Shown piece by piece: positions 14,774 to 19,379 of a DNA stretch of 47,561 nt. Within the stretch, counting starts at the first letter, position 1, and each line of letters starts with the position of its first letter. Both the position numbers and the translations under genes were made by a program. Below the pieces are notes generated by a model, which saw nothing but the letters and a program-made list of their open reading frames with translations, ran no database searches and had not been told where the DNA came from. Source of the stretch: an uncultured Clostridia bacterium (GTDB taxonomy: Bacteria > Bacillota > Clostridia > UBA1381); assembly GCA_934481375.1 (NCBI GenBank), contig CAKSPN010000001.1, positions 1 to 47,561 of the forward strand, read 5' to 3'.

Positions 14774-16072
14774 ATGTTGGAAACAATCTTTGAAGTAGGC
14801 ATCAATGCGCTCGAGATGTTTATTGTGGTATTTTTTATCACCCAATATCTCGGCTGTAAGTACACGGGGGCAAGGAAATATATAGGCTTTTTTACAACAT
14901 GGTTTGTGTTGTTTGCAGAGCTGTGCATTATGAACCATTATGTTACGCTTGAAACCATAGGCGCATACATACCGGTACTGATATATTTTGTATACGCCCT
15001 TATACAGCTGAAAGGCAGTATTGTGCTTAAAATATGGGTTGCGATACTTACACAGGCTATACTTTACGGAATAGCCATAGTTACAAATATGGTTTTCTGC
15101 AATTTGCTCGGTTATAACCCGGCACAGCTTATACATTCATTTAATGCAGTGAGAATTATATTTGTACTTACCACGAAGGTTGTACTTATAGTATTTGTAT
15201 GGGCAATGCTGAAATACAAGCAAAAAAACCCGATTGATGAGAAAACATGGCTTATGCTTATGTTTGTACCTGCAATATCGGTTATTTCTCTGGGATTTTT
15301 GCTTAAAGCGGCAATGCTTCATCATGATATAATGCAATACGTCGCTTTCGGAATGGTATGCATCGTTCTTGCGAATGTTATGATGTACTATTTCTTCGGC
15401 GTGCTTAACAAGGATTACGAAACAAGAATGAAACTTAATCTCTTAGAACAGCAAAACGCCGACGCAAAACGAAATATAGAGGCGTCGGAGGCGTTTGTAA
15501 ATCAGATGCGTGCGGTAAAGCATGATATAAAAAATCAGATGCTTATAATCCGCAAATATATCGAGGAGGGGAACTGCGATAACGCAAAGCAATATGTGGA
15601 CGATCTTATAGATACATATATCCCCGATATGCAGAGCTTTGTAAAAACCGATAATGAGGCGTTTGACGCAATAGTTAATGCGAAACTTGCAGTCTGCCGC
15701 CGCAAGCACATATATATGGAGGTAAAATACGACGATAACGCCTTAGACTGTATGGAGGATTTTGACATTGCGGTGCTTTTCGGAAATCTTCTCGATAACG
15801 CCGTAGAGGCGGCGGAGAAAACGAAGAAGAGACATATTTCCTTAACCGTCACCACGGAGGGCGAATATATGTCGGCGGTTATTTCAAACAGCATAAACGA
15901 CTCGGTGCTTGAAGAAAACAAAACTCTTCAGACTTCAAAGTCAAATAAGAAAAATCACGGAATAGGCTTAAGAACCGTTCGTGCCACCGTGGATAAATAT
16001 GACGGATTTATCGAATTCAGCGAGGAACACGGGGAATTTTTCTGTCACGTAATGATAGGCTTAAATCAATAA
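14774..16072 (+). CDS. AgrC/ComD-like (HPK10) membrane sensor histidine kinase, GHKL ATPase
   Basis: About six N-terminal TM helices. H-box VKHDIKNQM, N-box FGNLLDNAVEA, G-box KKNHGIGLRTV. Starts 2 nt after the regulator stop. Confidence 0.85.
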   Translation: MLETIFEVGINALEMFIVVFFITQYLGCKYTGARKYIGFFTTWFVLFAELCIMNHYVTLETIGAYIPVLIYFVYALIQLKGSIVLKIWVAILTQAILYGIAIVTNMVFCNLLGYNPAQLIHSFNAVRIIFVLTTKVVLIVFVWAMLKYKQKNPIDEKTWLMLMFVPAISVISLGFLLKAAMLHHDIMQYVAFGMVCIVLANVMMYYFFGVLNKDYETRMKLNLLEQQNADAKRNIEASEAFVNQMRAVKHDIKNQMLIIRKYIEEGNCDNAKQYVDDLIDTYIPDMQSFVKTDNEAFDAIVNAKLAVCRRKHIYMEVKYDDNALDCMEDFDIAVLFGNLLDNAVEAAEKTKKRHISLTVTTEGEYMSAVISNSINDSVLEENKTLQTSKSNKKNHGIGLRTVRATVDKYDGFIEFSEEHGEFFCHVMIGLNQ

Positions 16073-16082
16073 TATAAGTGCC

Positions 16083-16140
16083 GAGGTCAGCACCTCACAC
16101 TCCCAATAACAAAGCAGACAAACCGTTTAAGGTTTGTCTG
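16083..16140 (+). repeat. Family-2 structured intergenic repeat (H1 + linker + H2)
   Basis: GAGGTCAGCACCTC-ACACTCCCAATAACAAAGC-AGACAAACCGTTTAAGGTTTGTCT. A near-identical copy lies at 24748-24806. Confidence 0.8.
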
Positions 16141-16148
16141 CAGTCTGA

Positions 16149-16179
16149 AAGCTGTGGCAAAATATGCCGCAGCTTTTTT
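16149..16179 (+). terminator. Rho-independent terminator
   Basis: AAGCTGTGGC-aaaatat-GCCGCAGCTT (one G:U pair) running into TTTTTT. Confidence 0.7.
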
Positions 16180-16243
16180 GTGACTTTATAAAAACAGTGC
16201 GGAATGGACAACATATGTACTCCGAGCGGTGAAGTCCCCGGTA

Positions 16244-16271
16244 ACACAAATCTCTTTTACTGCATACTATA
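16244..16271 (+). promoter_or_regulatory. Possible SigK-type (late mother-cell) promoter
   Basis: AC (16244-16245), 17 nt, CATACTATA (16263-16271). This matches the B. subtilis SigK pattern AC-16/17-CATAnnnTA. It lies 54 nt upstream of the Cys-rich peptide gene. The motif is weak on its own. Confidence 0.3.
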
Positions 16272-16324
16272 CACTAACTGAAGGGCAATTTTGCCGTCAG
16301 ATATGTATAAAAGGAGGTTTTCTT

Positions 16325-16498
16325 ATGGGTTTATTCGGAAACAACTGCGGCGGCGGCAGCGATCAGTGGATATGGATTTTAATAATTATCGTTCTGGTGG
16401 TTTGCTGCTGCGGTGACGGCGGATTATTCGGCGGCGGAAACGACTGCTGTTGTGAGCGTGAGCGCAAGTGCTGCGACCCGTGCGATCCCTGCTGCTGA
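16325..16498 (+). CDS. Cys/Gly-rich single-TM micro-protein, 57 aa
   Basis: RBS AAAGGAGG is 8 nt before ATG 16325. Translation: MGLFGNNCGGGSDQWIWILIIIVLVVCCCGDGGLFGGGNDCCCERERKCCDPCDPCC (12 Cys, mostly in CCC/CC runs). A strong terminator follows. Confidence 0.7.
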   Translation: MGLFGNNCGGGSDQWIWILIIIVLVVCCCGDGGLFGGGNDCCCERERKCCDPCDPCC

Positions 16499-16505
16499 CA
16501 ATTGC

Positions 16506-16546
16506 AAGGCGGAGTGCTTTTGCACTCCGCCTTACAGTTTTTTTTT
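16506..16546 (+). terminator. Rho-independent terminator
   Basis: AAGGCGGAGTGC-tttt-GCACTCCGCCTT (perfect 12-bp stem), then ACAG and a run of nine T. Confidence 0.85.
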
Positions 16547-16652
16547 GCTGTTTACGAAAAATTTACAAAAAACAGTAGTAATCCTTGAAAAGATGTGTTA
16601 TAATAGATATAACTGTTTAATGACGGGCATTATATGCCATTAGGAGGTTACT

Positions 16653-19379
16653 ATGAATTTATTCGATAAATTGTTCGGAACATATTCGGACAGGGAATTA
16701 AAGCGTGTGCGTCCGATTGCGGACAAGGTAATGGCGCTTGAGGAGGATATGGCAAAGCTGTCTGACTCGGAGCTGAAAGCCAAAACGGGCGAATTTAAAG
16801 AGCGCATTAAGAACGGGGAAACTCTTGACGATCTTCTCCCCGAAGCATTTGCGGTTATGCGTGAAGCGAGCTGGAGAGTACTCGGAATGAAGCACTTCTA
16901 CGTTCAGGTACTCGGCGGCGTTATCCTGCATCAGGGACGTATTGCCGAAATGAAAACAGGTGAAGGTAAAACTCTCGTATCCACACTGCCGGCATATCTT
17001 AATGCATTGAGCGGAAAAGGGGTACATATAGTTACCGTAAACGATTATCTTGCAAAGCGTGACAGCGAATGGATGGGAAAGGTTTACCGTTTCCTCGGTA
17101 TGAGCGTGGGTCTTATTATCCATGACCTTAACAACGAACAGCGCCGCGAGGCTTATGCAAGCGACATAACCTACGGCACAAACAACGAACTCGGATTTGA
17201 CTATCTGCGTGACAATATGGTTGTCCACAAGGAAGAAATGGTTCAGCGCGGACACAATTATGCCATCGTGGACGAGGTGGACTCCATTCTTATAGACGAG
17301 GCAAGAACTCCGCTTATTATTTCGGGTATGGGTTCGGACGCAAACGACCTTTACAGAGTTGCGGATATGTTTGTAAAGCGCTTGAAAAAGCTTGTACTCA
17401 CCGAACATGATGACAAAACTCTCGATGTTGACGTTGACGCAGACTACATCGTGGACGAAAAAGCAAAAACCGCAACGCTTACCGAGCGTGGCGTAAAAAA
17501 GGCGGAGCAGGGATTTGGCGTGGAAAACCTTTCCGACCCGGAAAATATGCAGTTACAGCACCACATTAACCAGGCTTTGCACGCAAACGGCGTAATGCAC
17601 CGTGACCAGCAGTACGTTGTAAAAGACGGTCAGGTGCTTATAGTTGACGAATTTACGGGAAGAATTATGCCGGGCAGACGTTACAGCGACGGTCTGCACC
17701 AGGCTATAGAGGCAAAAGAGGGCGTTAAGATAGAAAATGAATCGAAAACGCTTGCGACAATCACATTCCAGAACTTCTTCAGACTGTACTCCAAGCTTTC
17801 GGGTATGACGGGTACTGCTCTGACCGAGGAGGAGGAATTCCAGCACATATACAAGCTTGACGTTGTTGCCGTTCCCACAAACAAACCCGTTATCCGAAAG
17901 GATATGCACGATTCCGTATACAGAACGGAAAGGGGCAAATTTATGGCAGTTATCAAGCAAATAAAGGAATGTCACGAAAAGGGACAGCCGGTGCTTGTCG
18001 GTACGGTAAACGTTGACAAATCGGAACTTTTAAGCGCATTATTAAAGCGTGAGGGCATAAAGCACGAGGTATTAAACGCAAAATTCCACGAAAAAGAAGC
18101 CGAAATAATCGCACAGGCAGGTAAAAAAGGTGCTGTTACGATAGCAACCAATATGGCGGGCCGTGGTACTGATATTATGCTCGGCGGTAATGCCGAATAT
18201 ATGGCAAAGCACGAAATGGCAAAGCAAGGCTTCAGCGAGGAACTTATTAACGAGGCTACAGGTTTTGCGGAAACAGATGATGAAGAAATCATAAACGCAC
18301 GTAACACCTTTAAGGAACTTAACGAAAAGTTCAAGAAGGAAATTCAGCCGGAGCGTGACGAGGTTAAGACTTTGGGCGGATTATTCATAATAGGTACGGA
18401 GCGCCACGAGTCAAGACGTATCGACAATCAGTTAAGAGGACGTGCCGGACGTCAGGGCGACCCCGGTGCATCGAGATTTTTCCTCTCACTTGATGATGAT
18501 TTGATGAGAATTTTCGGCAGCGACAGAGTTAAGGCAATGGTAAACGGACTCGGTCTTGAGGAGGACGAGCCGATCGAAGCGAAAATGCTCACAAGAGCGA
18601 TAGAAAACGCTCAGAAAAACCTCGAAAGCAGAAACTTTGATTCACGTAAGCACGTTCTGCAGTATGACGAGGTTATGAACGAACAGCGTAAGATTATATA
18701 CAAACAGCGCCAGATGGTGCTTGACGGCGAGGATATTCACGGCACGATACAGCAGATGATGGAGTCAATTATAAATTCGGCTGTGGACGATTATATAGGA
18801 ATTTCGGAAATTCCCGAGGAATGGAATATTCATGCTCTTACGGAGTTTGCCAACGCATATCTGCGTGCGGACGGAGAATTTGTGATTTCCGACTCCGACC
18901 TTGAAACAATAACAAAGAACGACGTAAAGAATATGCTTCTTGAAATCGCACAAAAGAGATATGCACAGCAGGAGGAAATATTCGGTCCGGCTATGCGTGA
19001 ACTTGAGAGAGTTATTATGCTCCGTGTTGTTGACACGCTTTGGATGGATCACCTTGACGAAATGGAACACGTTAAGCGTGAAATCGGCTTGCGTGCATAT
19101 GGTCAGCACGATCCCGTTGTGGAATACAGAAATGTCGGCTCGGAGCTTTACGAAGGAATGCTCGAGGCTATAAAGAGAGATACGGTAAGATACCTGCTCT
19201 TTGCAATGCCGAGAATTAAGATTGAACGTGAACAGGTTGCAAAGCCGATGGATACCGGCGGTGACGGCTCGCTTAAAAAGCAGCCGGCGAAGGCTGACAA
19301 AAAGGAAGTCGGCAGAAACGATCCGTGTCCGTGCGGCAGCGGCAAGAAGTATAAGCATTGCTGCGGTAAAGATAAGTAA
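16653..19379 (+). CDS. secA: Preprotein translocase ATPase SecA
   Basis: [10 protein letters not shown] Walker A, DEAD-like [19 protein letters not shown], and the C-terminal zinc motif [23 protein letters not shown]. Confidence 0.97.

Follow-up and report, generated by a model that had tools for sequence, protein, structure and literature searches.

The window analyzed here is a stretch of 47,561 nucleotides (contig CAKSPN010000001.1 of assembly GCA_934481375.1) from an uncultured Clostridia bacterium of the lineage UBA1381, and the gene of interest is a short open reading frame (ORF) on its forward strand. This ORF encodes the peptide MGLFGNNCGGGSDQWIWILIIIVLVVCCCGDGGLFGGGNDCCCERERKCCDPCDPCC, in which cysteine makes up 12 of the 57 residues (21%), and it is a stand-alone gene, preceded by a promoter and leader of about 140 nt. 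As argued below, with a probability that we put at roughly 55%, the peptide may be a membrane-anchored, thiol-rich component of the spore envelope that is made in the mother cell late in sporulation. The features of the locus are collected in Table 1. An initial annotation of this DNA had described a strong ribosome binding site, an ATG at 16325 and a perfect 12-bp terminator as a monocistronic unit encoding a 57-residue peptide with 12 cysteines and a single hydrophobic core. All of these signals can be read in the sequence, our translation is identical, one helix is predicted, and an upstream terminator was found in addition.

Table 1. Features of the peptide locus, in window positions; the promoter, hairpin and helix entries are predictions.
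Feature	Position	Strand	Detail
Intrinsic terminator of the upstream LytTR-regulator/histidine-kinase operon	16147..16179	+	13-bp stem, -20.1 kcal/mol, z -5.8, then U-run
-35 element GTAACAC, sigma-K type	16241..16247	+	diagnostic AC at 16244-16245
-10 element CATACTATA (CATAnnnTA)	16263..16271	+	17 nt downstream of the AC
Weak 5'-leader hairpin	16278..16300	+	close to the inferred transcript start; -9.5 kcal/mol, z -2.5
Shine-Dalgarno sequence AAAGGAGG	16310..16317	+	GGAGG-to-ATG gap of 7 nt
Coding sequence, 57-residue micro-protein with 12 Cys	16325..16498 (including stop)	+	ATG 16325, TGA 16496-16498
Codons of residues 14-29 (QWIWILIIIVLVVCCC), single predicted membrane helix	16364..16411	+	AlphaFold2
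Intrinsic terminator of the peptide gene	16506..16546	+	12-bp stem, 4-nt loop, U-run

Downstream of the ORF, positions 16506-16533 form the perfect stem and its loop, and these are followed by ACAG and nine T residues that extend to 16546. The folding energy of this terminator is -27.5 kcal/mol (z -6.9). Most orthologues are also trailed by terminator-like hairpins, and an equivalent AAGGAGG is found before the orthologous ORFs. In a genome of the same species (G002, locus L002) the stems of the hairpin are identical to those in the window and the loop, which reads TTTT at 16518-16521 in the window, reads AAAA, so that the loop has been flipped. On the upstream side the histidine-kinase gene has its stop at 16072, and because the operon to which it belongs ends at its own terminator (Table 1) the peptide unit would be monocistronic. 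Two further hairpins, at about 16076-16095 and 16114-16141, lie between the kinase stop and the kinase terminator, outside the peptide unit. The weak hairpin in the 5' leader may stabilize the mRNA; several orthologue leaders, when read by eye, hold short hairpins of unrelated sequence. Over positions 16050-16660 Rfam detected neither a riboswitch nor a known small RNA, and returned two chance-level matches only.

A six-frame search for the peptide over 61 related genomes, of the kind that the initial annotation had proposed, found homologues in 55, including 35 of the 36 genomes from the same family. Their alignment can be summarized as MGLFGG-(C,G,N)-D-x-WIWILIIIVLV-CCC-GDG-LFGG-NN-CCC-(D/E)PCC...CC, with M1, G5, W15, W17, I21, G36, C42 and C43 invariant. 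Among 24 distinct coding sequences the median proportion of differing synonymous sites (pS) is 0.75, which is to say that these sites are saturated, and the corresponding value for nonsynonymous sites (pN) is 0.24; over the unsaturated pairs the ratio of nonsynonymous to synonymous substitution (dN/dS) is about 0.18. The conserved Leu, Ile, Val and Gly positions use up to five codons each. It is therefore the reading frame, and not the DNA as such, that has been conserved, and this disposes of the opposite outcome that the initial annotation had named as fatal to its proposal. Judged by this pattern of substitution, the ORF is a genuine gene under purifying selection.

Of the family to which the peptide belongs 64 distinct members were collected, with a median length of 52 residues and a median of 9 cysteines (17%). 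Only two of these members surpass the 12 cysteines of the window peptide. The Cys density had been called unusual, and this holds in the sense that the window peptide lies near the top of its family; the distinction is a relative one, since the family as a whole is cysteine-rich. The exact window protein is missing from a collection of 15 billion proteins. A word-indexed protein search yielded 2 homologues, and a full HMMER profile search of 1.84 billion cluster representatives yielded 49 matches. The sole source name met among the protein matches was "hypothetical protein [Oscillospiraceae bacterium]", and the named genome matches are metagenome-assembled genomes of uncultured gut Clostridia, including Candidatus Avimonoglobus. 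Gene callers usually miss the family. Neither Pfam nor NCBIfam gave anything relevant for the ORF, for 17 homologues or for 10 shorter paralogues, and a PDB profile search returned zero matches at E<=10. This is an uncatalogued family of tiny Cys-, Gly- and Asn-rich membrane peptides that, in the sampling so far, is restricted to a single order of uncultured gut Clostridia that form spores.

When AlphaFold2 was supplied with the family alignment it predicted one helix, residues 14-29, with a predicted local distance difference test score (pLDDT) of about 70; the remainder of the chain scored below 50 and the mean was 55, a level of confidence outside the helix that did not justify a fold search. 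The model thus shows the peptide as a single predicted membrane helix with unstructured, Cys-rich tails. Four Cys clusters are conserved: a single N-terminal Cys, a CC(C) where the helix ends, a second CC(C) past a Gly/Asn spacer, and a terminal CC. The last of these is nearly invariant, with a CC at the C-terminus in 49 of the 64 distinct members. The spacers among the clusters vary freely (DP, EP and runs of N in various members, ERERK in the window). A signal-peptide n-region is absent, the N-terminal flank having no K or R (median 0), and the lipobox of lipoproteins, [LVI][ASTVI][GAS]C, is also absent, because V, I or L rather than G, A or S precedes the first helix-end Cys in all members.

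The genome that contains the window is that of a spore former. It encodes SpoIVA, above the curated cut-off, together with DpaA, alpha/beta-type small acid-soluble proteins of the spore (SASPs), and a sigma factor that scores 292.7 bits against the sigma-K model and has an N-terminus that we take to resemble the pro-sequence of pro-sigma-K. The initial annotation had matched AC-17 nt-CATACTATA (16244-16271) to the SigK promoter pattern. This motif is indeed present and is conserved upstream of the orthologues, where the consensus is (G/T)(T/C)(A/C)AC(A/C)-N14/15-G-CATAnnnTA. The strict form, AC-N16/17-CATAnnnTA, was found in 15 of 23 distinct orthologue upstream regions, compared with a mean of 0.2 and a maximum of 3 in 1000 shuffles. 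A looser form was found in all 23 (shuffle mean 0.9), although one match (L026), which lies 119 nt upstream at the edge of the region, is probably spurious. The TA at positions 8-9 of the -10 element is invariant and so fits the sigma-E/K type, not the sigma-G type.

To separate the three sigma factors, promoter matrices were trained on marker genes of the same lineage: dpaA for sigma-K, spoIIIAA for sigma-E and SASP genes, which are sigma-G targets, for sigma-G. Transcription of dpaA depends on sigma-K, and that of spoIIIAA on sigma-E, in B. subtilis as well as in C. difficile; what chiefly sets the two classes of promoter apart is the -35 element, AC under sigma-K and ATA under sigma-E, and their -10 elements are similar (PMC3789822). 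A matrix built from the peptide promoters gave a median of 15.3 bits on 29 dpaA upstream regions, 22 of which exceeded the 95th percentile of shuffles (8.4 bits). On 29 spoIIIAA upstream regions the median was 2.8 bits and only one exceeded this limit; the two sets of scores differ with p = 2e-9 (Mann-Whitney). In the reciprocal comparison the dpaA-trained model placed 22 of 22 peptide promoters over its shuffle threshold, the spoIIIAA-trained model 1 of 22 and the SASP-trained model 0 of 22, and these models gave the window promoter 19.4, 7.0 and 7.5 bits, respectively. Among the lineage's own promoters, those of the sigma-E class read TTCTAAA or TCATATT-N14-(C/A)ATAxxAT, and those of the sigma-G class, from 29 SASP promoters inspected, read GAATA-N17-yAAAATA. 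Lineage-specific models therefore back the SigK match, and by these models the peptide promoter is classed as sigma-K type, separate from the sigma-E and sigma-G types.

Elsewhere in the window's own genome the same motif, with a ribosome binding site, precedes dpaA, the sigK-like gene, a gene for a Cys-rich protein of 306 residues and a gene for a ZIP-family zinc transporter; the strict motif has about 37 matches genome-wide, many of them likely due to chance. Its presence before the sigK-like gene is consistent with auto-regulation. A further strict-motif match, at a SASP gene, was rejected as a coincidental overlap, since the real SASP promoter is of the sigma-G form given above. The 306-residue protein (G000:C75:4499-5416 (-), L178) has 18 cysteines in CC, CCC and CxC runs and sits behind TTCAC-N17-CATATTATA. 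No Pfam or NCBIfam family was found for it, and it is present in 36 of 37 relatives at 55-90% identity; in one genome (G005) it appears to be broken into two fragments separated by about 6.4 kb. We consider it a candidate for a major Cys-rich coat protein of the order. A complete AC-N17-CATATTATA stands 24 nt upstream of the ZIP-family gene (G000:C155:3826-4605 (+)), and this single motif match would suggest possible metal uptake by the mother cell at a late stage. A separate observation concerns spoIVA, which in about ten of the related genomes is matched in two separate pieces (model residues 1-403 and 399-492). In G023 these pieces (C6:20475-21683 and C6:47579-47860) share both contig and strand and are separated by 26 kb. 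Such an arrangement looks like the interruption of spoIVA by a skin-like intervening element that would need to be excised during sporulation.

Shorter relatives of the peptide exist as well. Within the same family of genomes there is a second copy of the form M-x-DCC..FDLDMILWVLIIIVIVTCMCNN, and sister families of the same order carry the short relatives MGCFFNGCGDDNNNWLLWIILIAVILCCCCGDN and MGCNNGLFGGFGNNSCLWIILIIILISCCCND. The paralogues of the first kind, M.DCC..FDLDMILWVLIIIVIVTCMCNN, which we call type B (30-39 residues; L033, L034, L036, L050 and L052), have the -10 sequence CATAnTATA, and a conserved GGACAA box 24 nt upstream replaces the AC at 16-17 nt. This box resembles a SpoIIID-type site, and the difference suggests that type B is timed differently from the long form. 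A second copy was searched for, and not found, in the window's own genome, an 87%-complete assembly; a type-B paralogue of 35 residues is present in the same-species genome G002 and absent from the window's assembly. Three members (P0038, P0045 and P0050; 79-114 residues) are tandem fusions of two complete modules, each with a Gly/Cys stretch, a WIWIIII helix and a Cys/Gly tail, so that the unit evidently duplicates as a whole.

The initial annotation had compared the peptide to the YjcZ-like peptides of spore formers, and this comparison holds for architecture and predicted sigma-K control; it fails for family membership. The relevant model, TIGR01732 (tiny_TM_bacill, the YjcZ family), has a cut-off of 21.35 bits. 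With hmmscan it gave no match at E<=10 for the ORF, the 17 homologues or the 10 shorter paralogues, and when all six frames of the genome that contains the window were searched with the model, the locus was not matched. Among 151 sampled genomes of the phylum it exceeded the cut-off in two, both Bacillus-like and of one genus, with 11-12 copies each. True YjcZ proteins, for example MGFGGSCGGCGFAGGFALLVVLFILLIIVGAACFC, were extracted and aligned, and hhalign assigned 34.5% probability to a relationship with this alignment, over 19 helix columns only and at 16% identity. The YjcZ core reads GGFALLVVLFILLIIVG(A/C)(S/A)C, whereas that of the peptide reads WIWILIIIVLV-CCC. The tail of the peptide, unlike that of YjcZ, is long, acidic and rich in Asn, Pro and Cys, ending in CC, and the taxonomic range of the two families differs. 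What they share is a length of 28-61 residues, a Met-Gly start, an N-terminal stretch rich in Gly and Cys, a single and very hydrophobic helix that is directly followed by Cys, in some cases a Gly/Cys tail, and multi-copy paralogues. B. subtilis yjcZ has been assigned to the sigma-K regulon (PMC517825), and several of the YjcZ genes that we fetched have CATAnnnTA -10 boxes when read by eye. The resemblance in architecture and predicted regulation thus appears to be real, and the peptide is no demonstrable member of the YjcZ family.

Two other groups of sporulation proteins invite comparison. The Cys-rich proteins CotY/ExsY, CdeC and CsxA are described as building disulfide-stabilized layers of the spore surface (PMC8546674, PMC7677010, PMC7333573, PMC4950064). 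As described there, CotY/CotZ, ExsY, CdeC/CdeM and CsxA share with the peptide a high Cys content; they are made late in the mother cell, and their stabilization by disulfides has been proposed or shown. However, they are soluble proteins of 150-400 residues that self-assemble into lattices, whereas the peptide has 57 residues, a membrane helix and no folded domain. Pfam and PDB profile searches detected no sequence similarity of the peptide to Cys-rich spore-surface proteins. The CD1980.2 family of C. difficile consists of membrane-associated proteins of 58 residues that promote sporulation, are controlled by a cyclic di-GMP riboswitch and act at the initiation of sporulation; no homologues outside C. 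difficile are reported, and hydrophobic and positively charged residues are marked in the published alignment (PMC13724677). The peptide is likewise small, membrane-associated by prediction, multi-copy and linked to sporulation, but its locus has no riboswitch by Rfam and it has a promoter of the late, sigma-K class; a relationship was rejected.

Based on the preceding observations, the action of the peptide as a spore-envelope component can be pictured as follows. Sigma-K RNA polymerase would produce the monocistronic mRNA in the mother cell late in sporulation, as its promoter class implies. The helix, residues 14-29, would insert in a membrane that faces the mother cell, most plausibly the outer forespore membrane, or else the mother-cell membrane, and the inserted peptide would expose its four conserved thiol clusters. 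Once the reducing cytoplasm of the mother cell is lost these thiols could form disulfides, with other copies of the peptide and with Cys-rich coat proteins, and the peptide, anchored in the membrane, would thereby act as a cross-linker of the spore envelope. To disulfide cross-linking specifically we assign less than half of the probability stated at the outset for the reading as a whole. The initial annotation had named metal binding and S-acylation as other possible uses of the cysteines.

Several considerations weigh against this proposal. SpoIVA is found in 60 of the 61 relatives, so that the phylogenetic profile of the peptide barely discriminates; the one genome without SpoIVA (G058) is also without the peptide. 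The sigma-K class comes from sequence models whose training anchors share the CATAnnnTA form, and the related genomes are not independent samples. The helix is flanked by Asp with essentially no K or R (median 0), so that the positive-inside rule gives no orientation. The hosts are strict anaerobes, in which disulfides would need exposure to an oxidant after lysis of the mother cell. Finally, the acidic tail, dense in CC and CxxC, would fit the binding of soft metals equally well.

The last two of these points lead directly to the first alternative, that of a membrane-tethered, metallothionein-like peptide of the late mother cell, the Cys clusters of which would serve as ligands for Zn(II), Cu(I) or some other soft metal, so that its role would lie in the loading or buffering of metals on the surface of the spore and not in disulfide formation. 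Motifs of the CC, CxC and CCxP types serve in metallothioneins and in high-sulfur keratin-associated proteins for metal-thiolate clusters or disulfide cross-linking, and the low-complexity motifs CCDPCDPCC and CCEPCC of the peptide tail recall them. Of the last 17 residues 9 are Cys, spaced as CC, CxxC and CCC and accompanied by Asp and Pro; the tails are predicted to be unstructured, conservation extends to the Cys clusters and not to the variable spacers, and a strict anaerobe would keep the thiols reduced. The genome also encodes a ZIP-family zinc transporter behind a promoter of the same type, but this is a single match among about 37, many of them likely due to chance. Metallothioneins and keratin-associated proteins are, moreover, eukaryotic or cytosolic, soluble and devoid of a membrane helix. 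The peptide contains no His, and no metallothionein or other metal-binding family of Pfam or NCBIfam matched any of 18 members, though such families are compositionally defined; the PDB profile search was likewise empty. As a whole these arguments leave metal binding as a possible but unlikely function in its own right.

The genes around the peptide bear on the remaining alternatives. In the window it lies 250 nt downstream of an HPK10-type, AgrC-like kinase and a LytTR regulator, and the pair keeps this position only within the species (L002, L028). In two other genera it adjoins secA, in differing orientations, and the commonest recurrent upstream context, shared by many orthologues, is an rsmI-like gene together with an ORF of 110 residues. 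A functional link to the two-component system or to secA was rejected on the basis of this synteny. Among the flanking ORFs of 29 loci there is no recurrent maturase, exporter, immunity or lysin gene, and no radical-SAM enzyme was seen adjacent in this listing, although no search was aimed specifically at it. A neighborhood that varies in this way argues against a quorum signal, the precursor of a modified peptide or a toxin cassette, and fits a structural or accessory gene that stands under its own promoter alone.

Many bacterial one-helix micro-proteins modulate membrane proteins, and the peptide might accordingly be a small regulatory subunit of a membrane complex of the late mother cell, with its cysteines used for contacts with a partner or for redox sensing. 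Its best-conserved part is the helix WIWILIIIVL with the MGLFGG and CCC flanks, as would be expected of a helix-helix interface, and the shorter paralogues consist of almost nothing but helix and Cys. However, no conserved partner gene lies alongside, the neighbors vary among genera, and the long tail has been selected for its Cys content, which pure helix packing does not explain. We regard this role as less probable still than metal binding. A holin-like or type I toxin-like peptide that damages membranes and so aids lysis of the mother cell at the end of sporulation would also be small and monocistronic, with one hydrophobic helix and the predicted late mother-cell expression. This is quite improbable. 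The tails are acidic or neutral and Cys-rich, whereas holins and type I toxins end in charged C-termini; no Rfam RNA was matched, no lysin gene is conserved nearby, and there is no convincing antisense promoter (one weak minus-strand match, compared with 2.1 expected by chance). Lastly, the proximity of the AgrC-like kinase and LytTR regulator, and a Cys content like that of ranthipeptide and sactipeptide precursors, might suggest a secreted autoinducer for this pair or a SCIFF-like or bacteriocin precursor, but this can be nearly dismissed, given that the adjacency is confined to one species and interrupted by a terminator, that the promoter is of a sporulation type, that no AgrB, C39 peptidase or ABC exporter is adjacent (nor any AgrB in the window flanks), that the 29 loci yielded no visible radical-SAM neighbor, and that neither SCIFF nor any other NCBIfam model was matched.

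The preferred reading, that of a spore-envelope component, has implications for organisms in which spores are the means of surviving oxygen and passing from host to host, as they are for most strictly anaerobic gut Clostridia. To our knowledge, almost nothing is known of spore-envelope proteins beyond Bacillus and C. difficile. The peptide family occurs almost throughout one order of uncultured spore formers of the gut and is in neither Pfam nor NCBIfam. One speculative and, in our estimation, unlikely elaboration is a thiol zipper that is armed by oxygen. As long as the mother cell is intact, the peptide would be kept reduced, or capped by metal, on the outer forespore membrane; after release of the spore to oxidizing surroundings it would lock remnants of the membrane together with Cys-rich coat proteins, for instance the conserved 18-Cys protein of contig C75, in a covalent shell. 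If this were true, exposure to air would itself trigger the hardening of spores in anaerobes.

Although the family is uncatalogued, tiny Cys/Gly-rich, one-helix sporulation peptides under sigma-K are already known as a kind, and the present example, a good candidate for the study of spore biology in gut anaerobes, will not surprise a specialist in sporulation. The YjcZ-style design, a tiny Cys/Gly-rich helix under sigma-K, nevertheless recurs in unrelated sequence families, and this recurrence suggests a function that is still to be discovered. The peptide described here is a concrete and easily synthesized candidate for a link between membrane and coat, or for a metal or redox element, of the spore.

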